Assembly (NCBI GenBank): GCA_041946805.1
Contig: JBHGBC010000083.1
Coordinates: 1-25,926 of the forward strand
Reading direction: 5' to 3'
Length of the DNA: 25,926 nt
Source of the DNA: a bacterium
GTDB taxonomy: Bacteria; Hinthialibacterota; Hinthialibacteria; Hinthialibacterales; Hinthialibacteraceae
A model generated the notes under the pieces. It had not been told where the DNA came from, did not search any database, and saw only the letters and a list, made by a program, of their open reading frames with translations. This document shows, piece by piece, positions 19,401 to 25,926 of the stretch (position 1 is the stretch's first letter; every line of letters begins with the position of its first letter). Position numbers and translations under genes: made by a program.

Positions 19401-20774
19401 TCACTCCGGGCCGGTCGGGAATCCCTGTTCGGCATAGCGTTGCAGTTTGTAGGTCAGCGCGCGGCGGCTGATGCCCAGGGCTTTCGCGGTTTCGGTGCGG
19501 TTGAATTGACACCGGCGCAGCGCTTCCAGGATGGCGGCGCGCTCGATTTCTTCCATGCGCCGGCCGGTGGGGGTTTCTCCGGTCCGCGTTCCCATCACGG
19601 ATTTCTGGATGCGCTTGGGGAGGTGTTCGGGAATGATCAGCTCGCCCCGCGCCATCAGGACAGCCCGTTCCATGGCGTTGCGCAGCTCGCGGACGTTGCC
19701 GGGCCATTCGTATTCTTCCAGGCAACGGATGAGGGAAGCGGAGAGCCGCGGATTGCCCTGGGAGAAGCGTTCGGCGAAGCGCTTGGCGAGGGGGACGATG
19801 TCCTCGCGCCGTTCGCGCAGGGGCGGGATGTAGATTTCCATGACATTCAAGCGGAAAAAGAGATCTTCCCGGAAATTTCCCTTTTCCACCTCTTCTTCCA
19901 GGTTGCGGTTGGTGGAGGCCAGGACGCGCGCGTGAGTGATCCGCGGGGTGTTGGAGCCAACGCGTTCGAAGGAGCCGTCCTGGGTGACGCGCAGCAGCTT
20001 CGCCTGGAGGGAAGGCGACATTTCCGCGATTTCATCCAGCAGAATGGTCCCTTTGTCCGCTTCCTCGAAACGTCCGATGCGCTGACCGGCGGCGCCGGTG
20101 AAGGCCCCTTTTTCATGGCCGAACAGTTCGCTTTCCAACAGGTTGTCGGGAATCGAGGCGCAGTTCACCTTGATCAGGGGATGATCCCGGCGGGGGCTCC
20201 AGGCGTGAATCACATCGGCCAGAATTTCCTTGCCCACGCCGCTTTCGCCGGTGATCAGCACCCGGCTGTCCGTGGGGGCCACGAGGGCGGCTTCGTGGAA
20301 GATTTCGCGCATGAGCGGGCTTTGGGCGACAATTCCTTCGGGCAAGGCCAATTGGCCGGGCAGGGCGGGCGAGGGGGAATCCTGGATGCCCAGGACGTCC
20401 AGAACCGAGGCGAGCAGTTCATCGAGGTCAATGGGTTTTTCCAAATAATTGACGGCGCCGTCCCGCATGGCGTGGACCGCGTCGCGGACATCGGGGTAGG
20501 CGGTGATCAACAGGATGGGGAGCGTGGAGAACTTCTCCCGGGAGCGTCGCAACATCTCCAGGCCGGAGACGCCGGGCATGCGCACATCGGATATCATTAA
20601 CTGAATCCCGCGGGAATCGAGGAGGTTCAGGGCCTCTTCCCCGGAGGCGGCGGACTCCACCGGGAAGCCTTGGCCGGTGAGGAAGGAAACCAAGAGATTG
20701 CGCTGATTGGAATCGTCGTCCACGACGAGAATCGTGAAACGGGACCGCTTATCCTGGAACGCCGGATTCGACAT
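19401..20774 (-). CDS. Sigma54-dependent response regulator (NtrC/ZraR/AtoC family)
   Basis: Receiver domain (VDDD, SDVRMP, EKP); AAA+ domain with GESGVGKE, intact GAFTGA, ILLDE, FREDLFFRLN and WPGNVREL; C-terminal Fis-type HTH. Confidence 0.95.
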   Translation of the reverse strand: MSNPAFQDKRSRFTILVVDDDSNQRNLLVSFLTGQGFPVESAASGEEALNLLDSRGIQLMISDVRMPGVSGLEMLRRSREKFSTLPILLITAYPDVRDAVHAMRDGAVNYLEKPIDLDELLASVLDVLGIQDSPSPALPGQLALPEGIVAQSPLMREIFHEAALVAPTDSRVLITGESGVGKEILADVIHAWSPRRDHPLIKVNCASIPDNLLESELFGHEKGAFTGAAGQRIGRFEEADKGTILLDEIAEMSPSLQAKLLRVTQDGSFERVGSNTPRITHARVLASTNRNLEEEVEKGNFREDLFFRLNVMEIYIPPLRERREDIVPLAKRFAERFSQGNPRLSASLIRCLEEYEWPGNVRELRNAMERAVLMARGELIIPEHLPKRIQKSVMGTRTGETPTGRRMEEIERAAILEALRRCQFNRTETAKALGISRRALTYKLQRYAEQGFPTGPE

Positions 20775-20811
20775 AGACCGCCACTTTTCCAAGATTCTTT
20801 CAGAGGATCGT

Positions 20812-22386
20812 TCAAAGGATTCTCATGCCGCCGATATGGAATAACGCCCCTCCTTCCGGCGGGGAAGCGCATACCACCGTCCAGCCATGCGACATCACGA
20901 TCTGCCGCACAACGGCCAGCCCCAGCCCGGTACCCTTGGAATGGGTGGTGAAGTACGGTTGGAAAATTATATCCCGATTTTCTTCCGGCACACCGGGGCC
21001 GTTGTCCCGGATTTCCAGAAAACCTTCCGCGGGCGACGAACGGCCGGTGGTGATCTCCACCCGGCCGCCGGGGGGGACGGACTGAATGGCGTTGATCAGC
21101 AGATTGAAAACGACCTGGCGCAGGAGCGATTCATCCGCGTCGACGGTGAGGCTGGGCCCGGACTGTTGGAACTCAATGGCCTTGTCCTCGAGGTCGGAGC
21201 GGAGAGCGCGTTCCACGTCCTGAACCACCGCGTGCACCGCCACCGGCGCGGGTTTCGGCTTGCGGGGCTTGGAATAGTCGATGAACTCGTTGAGTTGGGC
21301 GGTTACCCGGTCGACTTCCTCGGTGATCATGACCGAGCGGTCACGGGTTTCGTCCGGAATGCCGGTTTGCTTGGCGATCATCTGCGCCAGGCCGCGGACG
21401 ATGTTCAGCGGATTGCGCGTTTCATGCGCCAGGCCCGCGGCGGCGATGTTCATTTCCCGCAGGTTGGCGTTCATCTCGCTGGCGCGGACCAGCCGGAGTT
21501 GCAGGTCACCCGTCTTGATCTGGTTGCGCCACGCCAGCCAGATGCCCACCATGGCGAGGAGGGAAAATCCGCCGATGGTGGAACGCATCCACAAATCCTT
21601 GGACAAGGCGCTGTTATAACCCTGGGTGGACAGGACAAGAACGAATCCATGCAATCCTTGCTTTTGCAGCAGCGATTGGTATTGGCTTTCGTCCATCCAG
21701 AACGGCCGGCCGAACCAGGGCGGGCGGCGGCGCGCCCCGGGCCCTCCGCGCCGGTCCCGGTCCGCGGCACCCATCTCGGAGGGAGTAGCCTCGGTGAGCG
21801 CGCCCGTCGCGGACGCCGGGCCGCGGTTCTCCCATTCCGGCGGGGGCGGACCGTCGGCAAACGGCGGCGGGCCGCCGTCCGGTGAAGGCGGGCCGCCGTC
21901 CGGCGGGGGCGGAGGCCCCTCCCGCTCGTCCCGGCGGGGTTCGGGCAAGGGCAGAATCAGAGTGCGGGGTTCGCCGGGACGGGTATCCTCCGGGTCCACC
22001 CCCAGATCGACCAGGTTAACGTACGTGACGGTTTCGGTTCCCCAGCGTTCGCCGGTTTGAGGGAGATTGTCAATATCGATAGGGGTAGTGGATTCCCCGG
22101 CGGAAGTCACGACCTCGCCCAAGGCGTTGAGCAAGGCGATGGATTGCAGATCTTCCTGCTTGCTCAAGTCTTGGAGGGCCTGTTCCAGCCGGTTTTTGGA
22201 AATGACGCCCCCGAAGCGGCGCATGGAACGGATCACCGTGGCCAGCGAGTTAGTGATGTCGCGCGTCCGGTTCAGCAATCCCGTGCGGACATTGGCTTTG
22301 AAACGGTGATGATCGATCACCTGCCATCCGATGATCACCAGCCAGATGAGAACCAGAATAAGAGGGATGGTGGTTTTCCGTTGCAT
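20812..22386 (-). CDS. Membrane-bound sensor histidine kinase with a Pro/Gly-rich periplasmic insertion
   Basis: Two TM segments; H-box AHETRNPL, N-box NLLINA, DNGPG, IFQPYFTT and GTGLGL. Confidence 0.95.
   Translation of the reverse strand: MQRKTTIPLILVLIWLVIIGWQVIDHHRFKANVRTGLLNRTRDITNSLATVIRSMRRFGGVISKNRLEQALQDLSKQEDLQSIALLNALGEVVTSAGESTTPIDIDNLPQTGERWGTETVTYVNLVDLGVDPEDTRPGEPRTLILPLPEPRRDEREGPPPPPDGGPPSPDGGPPPFADGPPPPEWENRGPASATGALTEATPSEMGAADRDRRGGPGARRRPPWFGRPFWMDESQYQSLLQKQGLHGFVLVLSTQGYNSALSKDLWMRSTIGGFSLLAMVGIWLAWRNQIKTGDLQLRLVRASEMNANLREMNIAAAGLAHETRNPLNIVRGLAQMIAKQTGIPDETRDRSVMITEEVDRVTAQLNEFIDYSKPRKPKPAPVAVHAVVQDVERALRSDLEDKAIEFQQSGPSLTVDADESLLRQVVFNLLINAIQSVPPGGRVEITTGRSSPAEGFLEIRDNGPGVPEENRDIIFQPYFTTHSKGTGLGLAVVRQIVMSHGWTVVCASPPEGGALFHIGGMRIL
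21866..21903 (-). repeat. In-frame tandem repeat (21-bp period) encoding PDGGPP in the kinase sensor loop
   Basis: GGCGGGCCGCCGTCCGG is identical at 21866-21882 and 21887-21903, with a degenerate third unit near 21845-21857. Confidence 0.8.
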
Positions 22387-22392
22387 GATGGT

Positions 22393-23688
22393 TTAGAACG
22401 CCCGGGAGGGGACGGCCTTGCTGTCCCGGGATTTTTTCGCGTTCGCGCCGGCTTTCGTCGAGGTTTTCTTCTTGGCCGCCGGTTGTTCCTTGGCCGCCGG
22501 TTCCGCTTTCTCCTGGACCGCGCCGGCCTTGGGAGCGGTTTCCGGTCCCGGTTGAATTTCGGCCGGCTGGATATCCCCCGCTTCGTTGCCGAGAGCCTTC
22601 TTCTGCTGTTCGTCGAAGAACTTGTTCAGTTGGTCCTCGGAAAAGGCCTGAGGAATCAGCTGGGAAGCCTGTTTTTCCTTGTTCGAGAGATCCACCAGGG
22701 GCTCGGGCCCCTCGACCACGTAGGGCGTCAGAAAGATCAACAATTCGGTCTTGGACGTATTCTTGATTTTCCGGCGGAAGGCCAGGCCCAGGAGAGGGAT
22801 ATCCCCCAGCACCGGGACCTTGGTCAACGTTTCCGTGTTATTGTCCTCCATCATGCCGCCGATGACTACGGTCTTCCCATTGGGCGTGCGCACCACCGTG
22901 TCGGCGGAGCGCTTGGCGAAGACCGGCGATTCGAGGGTGTTGGAGATGGGCACGGTTTCATCGGTCATGGTCGAGATTTCGGGCGCGAGGATCATTTCCA
23001 CCAGGCCGTCCTGGGTGATGAACGGGGTGACGCGCAGGATGATCCCGATATCCTCGTATTCGAGCGTGTTGATGGTCTGTCCGTCATCGGTGATGCGGGA
23101 GTTCGTGATCAAGGGAACTTCCTTGCCCACGGTGATCACCGCCTCCTGATTGTTGCGTGTCAGCACCGACGGCCGCGATAGGATTTCGGTCCTCCCCTTC
23201 TCCTGAATCGCGCGCAAGGTCATCTGGAAGTCGTTTTCCAGAATCCGATAGAAGCCGCCCTGGGTTTCCGCGGCCACCCCGAAAACGGTCTCCAGGATCC
23301 CGCCGTTCCTTCCGCCATCGTCGGCGTTTATGGAGCCTTCGATCCCGATATCGGAGTCGTCCCGGTAGGTGACTTCCAGGAACACGACTTTGATCAGCAC
23401 CTGCTGGACGGGGTGGTCCAGGCTCTTGATGATGTCGCCGATGTGCTGGTTCGTCTCTTCGTCGGTGATGACGATGATGGAGCGCGTGTCGTAATCGGCC
23501 TCGATGATCGCCTCGCCGACCATGCCGTTGGGCGTGTAGGTCCGCTGGTAGGAACTCGACGTCGAACCCATGAAGCCGCGGGATTGCTGGCCCATTCCCG
23601 CGAATTGGGCCTTGGCTTCAACCGCCGCCCATCCCAGGACCAAGAGGCCGGCGGCCAGTGTTCTCCAAACTGCGTTAAACCTGTTCAT
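22393..23688 (-). CDS. Short type II secretion secretin (GspD-like barrel with only half an N domain)
   Basis: Own RBS (GAGGT) and Sec signal (..AVEAKA-Q); QVLIKVVFLEV, ILSRPSVLTRNNQEAVITVG, GIILRVTPFI, GKTVVIGGM, KVPVLGDIPLLGLAFR and TELLIFLTPYV motifs; Lys/Ala-rich tail. Confidence 0.93.
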   Translation of the reverse strand: MNRFNAVWRTLAAGLLVLGWAAVEAKAQFAGMGQQSRGFMGSTSSSYQRTYTPNGMVGEAIIEADYDTRSIIVITDEETNQHIGDIIKSLDHPVQQVLIKVVFLEVTYRDDSDIGIEGSINADDGGRNGGILETVFGVAAETQGGFYRILENDFQMTLRAIQEKGRTEILSRPSVLTRNNQEAVITVGKEVPLITNSRITDDGQTINTLEYEDIGIILRVTPFITQDGLVEMILAPEISTMTDETVPISNTLESPVFAKRSADTVVRTPNGKTVVIGGMMEDNNTETLTKVPVLGDIPLLGLAFRRKIKNTSKTELLIFLTPYVVEGPEPLVDLSNKEKQASQLIPQAFSEDQLNKFFDEQQKKALGNEAGDIQPAEIQPGPETAPKAGAVQEKAEPAAKEQPAAKKKTSTKAGANAKKSRDSKAVPSRAF

Positions 23689-23717
23689 GATGGTTACCTC
23701 GATTGGTAGAGGGGGAA

Positions 23718-25925
23718 TCAGTTGCCGCTCCCGCTCCGGCTGTTGAATTGCATGGTGTTGGTGTTTTGCATGGTGCGGTTGCTTAACGTATTGCCCGTGG
23801 CGCCGGAGGTGGAGGAACTCCGCGACGTCCGGTTGTTGGAGCCGTAGGCTGTATTTTCGAACATGTTGCGCAGAATCTCGGAGACGTTTTCGACGTCCGC
23901 GTAATCCAACTTGTAGACGTATACTTTTTGCTTTTTATCGGCCCGGGAATCGAGTTGCTCGACCATCCGCCGGATCTGATCCATGGTGGCGCTGGCGGCG
24001 CTGACGATAACCGAGTTCGTGCGCGGATCGGCGACCGCGTGGACCGTGGTCTGCTGCAGTTGCCGCTGGCTTTGATTGGAAGAAGACCCCATGCCGGGAG
24101 GCATGCCCGGCATCCCGCCCGGTCCGCCGCCCATGCCGCCGCGCATCCCCATGCCGAAACGGGGCGCGAACTGGCCCAGCTGGGTGGAAGAGGTTTCCGG
24201 GAACAGATCGGTGAGGATCTGGGCCATCTCGGTGGCGTCGGCGTGCTCCAGCGGGATGGACGTCAGCTGGGGGCTGCCGACCTCGGCCTGCTTGTCGATC
24301 ATCTGGATGACCGGCTCGATCCGCTCCCAGTCCGACGGCGGGGCGATGCAGATGAGCACGCCGGCCGTCTCGATCGGCAGGAACCGGACGGGGTTGTTCG
24401 GCCTGCCGGGCTGGTTGGCGAAGATCCCGGTCAGGGCGTTGGAGACCTCGCTGGGCCGGGCGGACTTGAGGTTGACGACGTGCTCGAGGGCCTGGTTGGT
24501 GGAGGCCTGGTCGAGCTGCTTGACCGCGTCGGCGACCCGGTCGAGGTACTGGGGCTCGCCGGCCGCGACGATGGCGTTGTTGACCGTGTCGGGGGTGATG
24601 GTCAGGGGCGAGCCCTTGGCGCCCTGGGGCCGCATGATCGACAGGAAGGCCTGGCGGAGGACCTCGACGACCTGCTCGCAGCGGGCCTCGGTCAGCGGGA
24701 TCCGCCGGATGGAGCCGGCGGCGTCCTCGACGTCGAAGCGGGCGACCAGGTCCTTGATCTCCTTCTGGGCGTCCTTGTCGGCCGTGACCAGCAGGGTGTT
24801 GGTCCCGCCGTCCGGGACGATCAGGACCGCGACGCTGGAGGCGCCGGCGCTGCGGCGCCACCACTGGCCGCTGCTGCGGCCGGGGACCTTGGGCTGGCCG
24901 GCGCTGGCGAAGAGCTGGCGCAGGGTGTTGGCCAGTTCCTCGGCGCGGGCGTGCTCGAGCTTGTAGCAGGCCATGGTGGCGTCATCGGGCAGGTCGATGT
25001 CGAGCTGCTCGATGAACTTGCCGATCTCCTCGAGCTTGCGCGGGGTGGCCTTGATCAGCAGGGCGTTGGCCTTGTCGTCGACGGCGATGTCGATCTTGTC
25101 GCCGCCGCCGCCGCTGCGGGCCTGCCCGGGCTGGCCCGGCTGGGGCACGGGCCGCGCGCCGCCGCCGGTCGGGAACATCTGCTGGATGATGTTGCGGGCG
25201 TCGCCGGCCACGGCGTTCTTGAGCACGAAGCGCTTCATCGGCCGCTGGTCGTCGGCCATGGGCCGCTGGACGATCTGCAGCCACCGATCCACGTCGGCGG
25301 CGGCGCCGGAGACAATCAGCGTGTTGGACTCGCCCATGGGCTGGATGAGCATGGTCATGTCGGGGGCGAACTGGCGGCACTGCTCGAACAGGTCGCCGGC
25401 GTCGGCGTTGGTGGGCGTGTAGAAGACCACGCACTTCTCGTCGTCGCCGAGGTCGGCGGCCTTGAAGGCCTCATAGCCCTCGTAGAAGTGGTCGACGTCC
25501 AGGACGCGGAGCCAGCCGCCGCTGCCGGAGATCTTGATGACCTGGATGTAGTCCTTGCGGAGCAGGGCGATCCGCGGCTGCGCCTGGGAGGTCAGCAGGC
25601 GGTTGAGGAAGCTGAAGGCGTCCTTGAAGGTCATCGGCCGCTGGTGGAAGAAATCGACCGTGCCGGTCAGGTCCTGGGTGTCGCCGACGATGCTCAGGCC
25701 GGTGGCGCGGCTGAAGTACTCCAGCACGTCCTTCCACTCGGCGCCCTTGAGGTTGAAGTTGTAGGCCTTGCGGAGGTACTCCGGTCGGCCGTCGGCCGCG
25801 ACGATCTGCGAGGTCACGGAGGAGGCCGGGGCCTGGACCGCGCCAGCGGGCTGGGCCGCCGGGGCTTCCGGGGCCTCCGGGGCGGCTTCGGCGGAAGGCT
25901 CGGGGGCCGGCGGGTTCTCGGCGGC
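23718..25925 (-). CDS. Secretin N-terminal-domain protein (N0, six KH-like N repeats and half a repeat) with no secretin barrel; 5' end is off the window
   Basis: N0 (FNLKGAEWKDVLEYFSRATGL), then repeated L..A.A..(L/I)..(L/M)F...D..(T)N.LIV......(L)D units. The frame stays open to the window edge through a Pro/Ala/Glu linker (AAENPPAPEPSAEAAPEAP), so GTG 25817 is probably not the true start. Confidence 0.85.
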   Translation of the reverse strand, partial: AAENPPAPEPSAEAAPEAPEAPAAQPAGAVQAPASSVTSQIVAADGRPEYLRKAYNFNLKGAEWKDVLEYFSRATGLSIVGDTQDLTGTVDFFHQRPMTFKDAFSFLNRLLTSQAQPRIALLRKDYIQVIKISGSGGWLRVLDVDHFYEGYEAFKAADLGDDEKCVVFYTPTNADAGDLFEQCRQFAPDMTMLIQPMGESNTLIVSGAAADVDRWLQIVQRPMADDQRPMKRFVLKNAVAGDARNIIQQMFPTGGGARPVPQPGQPGQARSGGGGDKIDIAVDDKANALLIKATPRKLEEIGKFIEQLDIDLPDDATMACYKLEHARAEELANTLRQLFASAGQPKVPGRSSGQWWRRSAGASSVAVLIVPDGGTNTLLVTADKDAQKEIKDLVARFDVEDAAGSIRRIPLTEARCEQVVEVLRQAFLSIMRPQGAKGSPLTITPDTVNNAIVAAGEPQYLDRVADAVKQLDQASTNQALEHVVNLKSARPSEVSNALTGIFANQPGRPNNPVRFLPIETAGVLICIAPPSDWERIEPVIQMIDKQAEVGSPQLTSIPLEHADATEMAQILTDLFPETSSTQLGQFAPRFGMGMRGGMGGGPGGMPGMPPGMGSSSNQSQRQLQQTTVHAVADPRTNSVIVSAASATMDQIRRMVEQLDSRADKKQKVYVYKLDYADVENVSEILRNMFENTAYGSNNRTSRSSSTSGATGNTLSNRTMQNTNTMQFNSRSGSGN

Positions 25926-25926
25926 C

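Follow-up and report, generated by a model that had tools for sequence, protein, structure and literature searches.

The 25,926-nt contig JBHGBC010000083.1 (assembly GCA_041946805.1), which was analysed over its whole length and is called the window below, belongs to a 6.7-Mb metagenome-assembled genome of the bacterial family Hinthialibacteraceae. Towards one end it carries two adjacent genes that probably encode a functional GspD secretin, naturally in two parts, for a type II secretion system (T2SS), with the N3 domain completed in trans. Secretins are single-chain, 12-15-fold ring pores, and N3, the domain that drives their oligomerisation, sits directly below the gate; here the chain appears to be divided between two genes within N3 itself.

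Two adjacent genes encode complementary parts of a secretin

The upstream gene, which encodes an N-domain protein (N-protein), is a minus-strand frame (23718..25925) that is still open at the contig end. The short secretin gene follows on the same strand (22393..23688, 431 aa) in a different frame, with a GAGGT ribosome-binding site 7 nt ahead of its ATG (23686-23688); GAGG-type sites are found at the same distance from the ATG in many relatives. The native features around the split, with sub-gene coordinates calculated by hand from residue numbers, are:

23721..24250, minus strand: native 177-codon 3' end of the N-domain protein gene, with most of the last complete N domain, the orphan N3 half and the tail
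23859..23924, minus strand: strand 1 and helix 1, the first half of N3, at the upstream protein's C-terminal end; this chain lacks the second half
23721..23858, minus strand: Ser/Thr/Asn-rich C-terminal tail of the upstream protein, 46 aa, with a conserved motif at ~23769-23792; AlphaFold2 predicted local distance difference test (pLDDT) below 50
23718-23720, minus strand: TGA stop codon of the upstream gene, from the sequence
23689-23717, minus strand: intergenic spacer of 29 nt, with the GAGGT site at 23696-23700
23608..23688, minus strand: aa 1-27 of the short secretin, a predicted Sec signal peptide with A-x-A before Q28
23518..23607, minus strand: low-complexity Gly/Ser/Thr/Gln linker (aa 28-57) that forms the mature N-terminus, with an aromatic/Arg motif at ~23536-23550; pLDDT below 50 for aa 29-57
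23410..23517, minus strand: predicted second N3 half (strands 2 and 3, helix 2; aa 58-93), running directly into the barrel
22711..23211, minus strand: Secretin pore domain (aa 160-326), Pfam PF00263
22393..22710, minus strand: C-terminal helices (aa 328-366), Lys/Ala/Pro-rich disordered tail and stop codon, from the sequence and AlphaFold2

A preliminary description of this DNA had given the same layout, and the TGA, the 29-nt spacer, the GAGGT site and the change of frame were all present as it described. On recalculation the second half of N3 fell exactly on its coordinates, 23410-23517, and the orphan half, which it had placed at ~23856-23924, within a codon of them.

Pfam searches showed that the short secretin contains a complete pore domain above the curated score (PF00263, profile positions 1-169 of 169, E 2.9e-48, 164 bits vs a cut-off of 27.5), which makes it a member of the Secretin superfamily. 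It matched only positions 32-69 of the 69-position Secretin_N profile, through aa 59-96 and at a sub-cut-off E of 0.09. The upstream frame as assembled contained seven Secretin_N stretches (PF03958, 254 bits), together with a weak N0 match (PF21305, 17 bits vs 27) that lies within a foreign part of the contig, described below. For both proteins the best NCBIfam model was that of T2SS GspD (TIGR02517), whose 600 positions were covered in turn by the upstream protein (100-334 in its best stretch) and by the short secretin (288-597). The SctC model TIGR02516 reached 122.8 bits vs a cut-off of 238.45, below the GspD score.

The cut maps to the variable loop of N3 in alignments and models

The C-terminus of the upstream protein aligned to residues 195-265 of GspD from enterotoxigenic Escherichia coli (5zdh) and to residues 204-287 of E. 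coli GspD (5wq7), and the aligned part of these chains runs from the N domain ahead of N3 through the first strand and helix of N3 into its loop. The short secretin aligned to XcpQ (5wln) from residue 256 onwards, a stretch that takes in what is left of the loop, then the second and third strands, the second helix and the barrel.

AlphaFold2 models of the separate proteins were in agreement with these alignments. The short secretin alone was modelled with strands at 61-65 and 70-74, a helix at 77-90 (pLDDT 70-80) and then the barrel; aa 29-57 were disordered, and nothing replaced the missing strand and helix, so that the short secretin is predicted to form half of the domain and not a complete N3 of its own. 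The model of the last 185 upstream residues (residues 1-8 of this fragment are encoded by foreign DNA) contained a complete strand-helix-strand-strand-helix domain at residues 3-110. In the orphan half behind it, the helix was modelled with a pLDDT of 84-89, its strand was unpaired and the tail was disordered. The upstream model overlaid N domains of GspD with Z scores of up to 10.9 and a root-mean-square deviation (rmsd) of 0.8-1.7 over 58-60 residues, and its residues 1-145 overlaid residues 167-286 of 5zdh_A (Z 10.4, rmsd 6.5, 91 aligned). The short-secretin model gave Z scores of 11.5-12.4 on GspD chains, with overlays that began at model residues 51-57; residues 54-363 overlaid residues 263-620 of 5zdh_A (Z 12.4, rmsd 6.5, 248 aligned). 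Together, the two predicted models tile one solved GspD chain, 5zdh_A. Judged by these alignments and overlays, the cut falls within the variable N3 loop that connects helix 1 to strand 2, as the preliminary description had proposed.

The split is conserved across genomes of several phyla

Of 35 genomes of the phylum, 29 had an orthologue of the short secretin, as did all 19 of the family, in open frames of ~390-470 aa unless a contig edge ended them. Among the 27 phylum-set loci that carry both genes, 25 had a stop, a spacer, an ATG and a signal peptide; one of the remaining two was unresolved by the script, and the other, from another phylum, held an ordinary fused secretin of 821 aa. Three further loci of this set, outside the 27, were interrupted by contig ends. 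A pattern scan of 185,579 species genomes yielded 555 relatives, and among the best 80 of these all 79 informative loci were split, some of the 80 coming from the same genomes as the phylum set. The record titles among the best 80 include Sumerlaeota/BRC1, Verrucomicrobiota (Limisphaerales, Pedosphaera, Chthoniobacter), Kiritimatiellae and Hydrogenedentota, together with a few further labels suggestive of binning errors.

The details of the junction vary across these 79 loci. The spacer ranged from -4 to 335 nt, the three frame relations occurred 40, 23 and 16 times (40 being the same frame), the upstream stop was TAA in 39, TGA in 24 and TAG in 16, and the short secretin started with ATG in 77 and with GTG in two. 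Two long frames, L118 (977 aa) and L072 (636 aa), were considered as fused revertants and rejected as spurious, the true upstream gene lying in another frame. The layout recurs in every informative locus among the relatives examined, which is more than chance would produce.

At its N-terminus the short secretin combines basic residues with a hydrophobic core and an A-x-A site that precedes Q28. Q28 was invariant and A27 nearly invariant in an alignment of short secretins (A1), the short secretins of 79 of 79 relatives passed a crude signal-peptide rule of our own making, and AlphaFold2 modelled aa 2-30 as a single helix. The short secretin is predicted to be exported via Sec with a type I signal peptide. 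The N-proteins of four relatives, of 483-493 aa, also have a signal-peptide-like N-terminus.

In an alignment of 23 upstream C-termini (A2), the orphan half had two invariant and eight nearly invariant columns, and the part of the fragment that precedes it had 11 and four. Across phyla, the orphan half retains the hydrophobic pattern of an N-domain core, and both half-domains are, as far as conservation tells, under constraint. The upstream tail was variable save for one short motif, whose Arg was nearly invariant in a further alignment of 77 sequences from several phyla (A3), and the downstream linker was variable save for a small motif just ahead of strand 2. Both motifs (23769-23792 and 23536-23550) lie in the free ends that the split creates, and they are candidates for contact between the chains. 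Taken together, the comparisons indicate that the split is an old arrangement common to many uncultured bacteria rather than a broken gene. With conservation over several phyla, and with a ribosome-binding site and a signal peptide of its own for the second gene, the earlier view that no simple lesion is at work was borne out.

Split secretins form one group in the tree

An exhaustive profile search returned 42,173 relatives. The 13 best representatives were short (289-480 aa), and fused forms of 666-1030 aa, with 42-49% identity, started at rank 14. In the fused relatives the two N3 halves are joined through a polar loop of ~40 to 110 residues. An unrooted FastTree tree was built with 127 rows, after 24 of 150 representatives had been dropped (14 partial matches and 10 N-terminally truncated sequences). 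The window sequence grouped, with a Shimodaira-Hasegawa-like support of 100, with 28 other split-type representatives and with one short form lacking a clear signal peptide; 29 of the 32 split-type representatives were in this group, and all 83 fused forms lay outside it. Because the split forms make up one supported group, the tree fits a single origin, the split having apparently arisen once.

T2SS operon context of the split genes

In a related locus, L040, the gene order is GspE, GspF, GspH, GspJ, GspK, a PilM_2-type L-like gene, GspM (T2SSM_b), a gene for 196 aa, the N-protein and the short secretin. The N-protein of this locus has 463 aa, with an N0 domain (43.5 bits) and four Secretin_N stretches. 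In the genome of the window, tblastn located GspK, L and M and a gene without a family at the end of another contig, C33, with 59-77% identity to a genome of the same genus; these genes are presumably linked to the window across the contig gap.

Of the features that mark a GspD, the locus has N domains (Secretin_N in the window) together with an N0 (from L040), and a T2SS operon context (from L040 and from the genes on C33). It departs from GspD in that N domains and pore are not joined in one polypeptide, being encoded by two genes in the window and in all informative relatives. With a sub-cut-off SctC score and T2SS neighbours (in L040), it does not belong to the split secretins of the Rhc-type type III secretion system (T3SS).

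A gene for 196-221 aa without a Pfam family always lies between gspM and the N-protein gene (L040:7989-8579, L127:4030-4695, and C33 38-460 of the window genome, G000). Its product may be a GspC-like partner of N0.

The upstream end of the contig is chimeric

The contig is an assembly chimera, and ~1.7 kb of it come from another organism. Two features describe the join:

24251..25926, minus strand: foreign high-GC contig end, coding for part of an N-domain protein from another organism (several N domains and a weak N0 match)
24230..24250, no strand: chimera join, a 21-nt overlap of two contigs, from contig comparison

The guanine-plus-cytosine (GC) content was 70% in the foreign part, as over 24051-25926, compared with a genome mean of 58.4%, and only 0.02% of 2-kb windows of the genome reach 69%. 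In sequencing run X1, possibly the source, record 1 (depth 17.1) was exact over 22300-24250 and then unlike the window, and record 3 (depth 6.8) matched 24230-25332 and then diverged in the other direction; contig depth was 6.8-7.4 in the foreign part vs 17.1 next door. The match of record 9 of an independent run, X2, ended at 24251 with ~410 nt left over. The nearest protein to the foreign part was P0270, from another genome, with 87% identity over aa 244-554. At the loose end of the native contig, the minus-strand frame goes on as the first strand of an N domain. Residues 1-234 of the N-protein from the same genus had no match in the window. When that orthologue was used in a tblastn search of the whole genome, C298 and, on contig C16, an unrelated fused secretin were the only hits; the upstream gene's native 5' part is not in the assembly. 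Because the upstream gene is chimeric above ~24250, its length of 735 aa and its count of seven domains are artefacts, and the long seven-domain protein of the window is not to be relied on as it stands.

The chimera does not affect the split, which is 530 nt within native DNA. The composition junction, from which the split had been said to be independent, is the assembly join at 24230-24250, outside both halves of N3. Contigs of three runs, X1, X2 and X3 (the last two from other studies), spanned 23680-23730 without indels; one contig of the other studies was ~96% identical over 22300-24251, and another, of 359 nt, had a single difference. Since run X24 had near-zero depth at the junction, this check rests on contigs and not on reads.

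A composite N3 is the favoured reading of the split

We propose that an ancestral single gene would have been cut within the long disordered loop of N3, the ring-building domain. The first product, in the periplasm, would consist of a signal peptide, an N0 and some four N domains (~480-490 aa in relatives) and would end in strand 1 and helix 1 of N3 followed by a polar tail. The second would be the short secretin with its own signal peptide, leaving after cleavage a polar linker, strand 2, strand 3, helix 2 and the pore domain. Both proteins would be exported by Sec, and in the periplasm the half-domains would pair into one composite N3, so that the N-domain stalk would be held non-covalently beneath the pore. 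The two proteins would most likely stand 1:1 in a ring resembling those of solved GspD, which have 15 subunits, and the joint may be strengthened by the small conserved motif in each newly created free end. Such a composite domain is suggested by the presence of two complementary, equally conserved halves, each of them incomplete when folded alone. In the preliminary description, the cut in the N3 loop, the absence of a lesion and the independence from the composition junction have stood; its further proposals, the rebuilding of N3 in trans and a detachable stalk, we continue to infer.

Several points weigh against this reading. Signal peptides were judged by a home-made, crude rule and not by SignalP, and expression of both proteins is assumed from conservation. 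Both proteins missed the GspD equivalog cut-off of 351.35 (222.6 bits for the short secretin and 268.9 for the upstream protein). The assembly lacks the N-terminal two thirds of the native upstream protein, whose N0 and signal peptide are known from relatives only. In the tree, which is quick and unrooted, three rows called split by a length rule sit among the fused forms. In a covariation analysis (mutual information with average product correction, 78 paired sequences, effective number 56), the 99th percentile for the trans halves was 0.164, no different from the negative controls (0.135-0.147); the positive control, a single-chain N domain, gave 0.156 and was also at background, so that at this depth the test is without power. 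Complex prediction with aa 27-345 of the short secretin and the last 77 upstream residues gave 0.28 and 0.27 vs a mark of 0.32, from 23-row alignments and with controls not run; unlike the points above, this result speaks on neither side of the question of binding.

It is conceivable, though we think it unlikely, that both proteins are functional and N3 is not rebuilt. The secretin would then be a pore with a truncated N3, accompanied by a separate periplasmic ring or adaptor on the inner-membrane platform, and the terminal strand and helix would contact, for example, the N domain of a neighbouring subunit or the 196-221-aa protein. Pairing in trans is, after all, something that we infer; a conserved gene without a family always adjoins the N-protein gene; and the eukaryotic mitochondrial T2SS relics have, in the part of the review consulted, stand-alone GspD cores and separate short N-domain proteins (PMC10128026). 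What speaks for a composite N3 instead is that the cut leaves exactly complementary halves that tile a solved GspD chain, and that across phyla the orphan half has retained the hydrophobic pattern of an N-domain core, something difficult to account for if it had stopped folding into such a domain. N3 is required for secretin oligomerisation (PMC6155069), and a permanent half N3 would therefore be costly.

A metagenome-assembled genome in 315 contigs, with an estimated contamination of 4.2%, and a contig that is truly chimeric 530 nt upstream of the split could point to a sequencing or assembly error, a frameshift or nonsense lesion in a dying gene, or a side effect of the chimera. Such an artefact is nevertheless exceedingly improbable, given that 25 of 27 loci of the phylum set and 79 of 79 informative loci of the wider set show the stop, the spacer and the start, with all three frame relations represented, that every downstream gene comes with a ribosome-binding site and a signal peptide of its own, that the junction reads alike in contigs of three runs, of which two belong to other studies, and that the chimeric join is outside both halves. 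Programmed recoding, by which stop read-through or a frameshift would still yield a single-chain GspD, finds some encouragement in the 40 of 79 relatives that have both genes in the same frame, many of these with a spacer of just 21 nt. Yet the frames differ in the window and in 39 of the 79, the spacers range from -4 to 335 nt, all three stop codons are used, and a fused chain would have a periplasmic loop interrupted midway by a hydrophobic signal peptide, which leaves recoding very improbable.

We are somewhat doubtful of a more specific picture: a two-subunit machine with a two-chain N3, in which the motifs of the free ends act as a clasp between the chains and the stalk is exchangeable or docks reversibly. 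Were this true, pore insertion and coupling to the inner membrane could be assembled, regulated or evolved separately, and the T2SS would have a mode of assembly undescribed in any bacterium.

Comparison with known secretins

Canonical GspD proteins (PulD, XcpQ and EpsD; structures 5wq7, 5zdh, 5wln and 6hcg) have the same domain order of N0, N domains, N3, pore and C-terminal helices, come from the same type of T2SS operon, and are the best sequence and fold matches of both split proteins. The locus described here differs from them in having two genes, two signal peptides and a chain that is broken within N3. The fused GspD relatives closest by sequence (P0146, P0132, P0133, P0154 and others), of 700-1030 aa, show 42-49% identity in the second N3 half and the pore and have the same N3 halves with a polar low-complexity loop between them; unlike the window protein they are one chain, and they lie across the branch with support 100.

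Secretins on two genes have been described in other settings. The rhizobial-type T3SS has RhcC1/NolW with RhcC2, and Pseudomonas syringae has HrcIIC1 with HrcIIC2, a two-gene secretin that the consulted part of PMC3574062 calls a conserved family trait of unknown significance. As in the window, the N-terminal and C-terminal parts of the secretin are on two genes there; the Rhc-type secretin differs, as far as that text goes, in that it belongs to an SctC system and that its two genes are set apart by other genes or are distant. In the mitochondrial T2SS relic, the cores GspD and GspDL and the proteins GspDN1-3 are separate products whose assembly is unknown according to the same part of PMC10128026, which also states that the pore of the bacterial T2SS is a single polypeptide. 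Pore core and N domains are thus separate gene products in the relic as in the window, while the relic is eukaryotic, has several short N-domain proteins, and is likened here by description, the part consulted describing no cut inside N3. Our literature search found no paper on a two-gene secretin of a bacterial T2SS, and the words secretin, GspD and T2SS are absent from the main text of the Hinthialibacterota genome paper (PMC9324843).

A natural cut in N3 across several phyla would be a ready-made split-protein experiment. It raises the questions of whether two chains can build an N3, in which order pore and stalk assemble, and whether the coupling between the outer-membrane pore and the inner-membrane platform could be made reversible. 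Since neither half reaches the GspD equivalog threshold, such systems may be scored as secretin-less or broken.

Neighbouring genes and other secretins

Directly 3' of the short secretin, and on the same strand, the window carries two genes:

20812-22386, minus strand: histidine kinase (Pfam HisKA, HATPase_c)
19401-20792, minus strand: sigma-54-dependent response regulator (Pfam Response_reg, Sigma54_activat, HTH_8)

At the related locus L041, open reading frames of similar size come after the secretin.

The genome of the window has long secretin frames of 970, 1061, 793 and 738 aa on contigs C16, C35, C268 and C17, respectively; with these ordinary long secretins present, the split form coexists with fused paralogues. 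Contig C16 also has a second GspK-like gene. Contig C223 of this genome holds a second unusual secretin locus (G000:C223 92684-96166; L008:98-3580, minus strand), where a gene for a tetratricopeptide repeat (TPR) protein is followed by two adjoining stand-alone short secretins of 370 and 401 aa, in which Pfam recognised Secretin only.

The 150 nearest representatives also included giant secretins of 3423-5532 aa (P0213, P0215, P0221, P0225, P0239, P0242, P0248, P0250, P0255, P0256, P0260 and P0265). They fell into one starred group of 17 on the fused side of the tree, with 11 in one subgroup and one in another.

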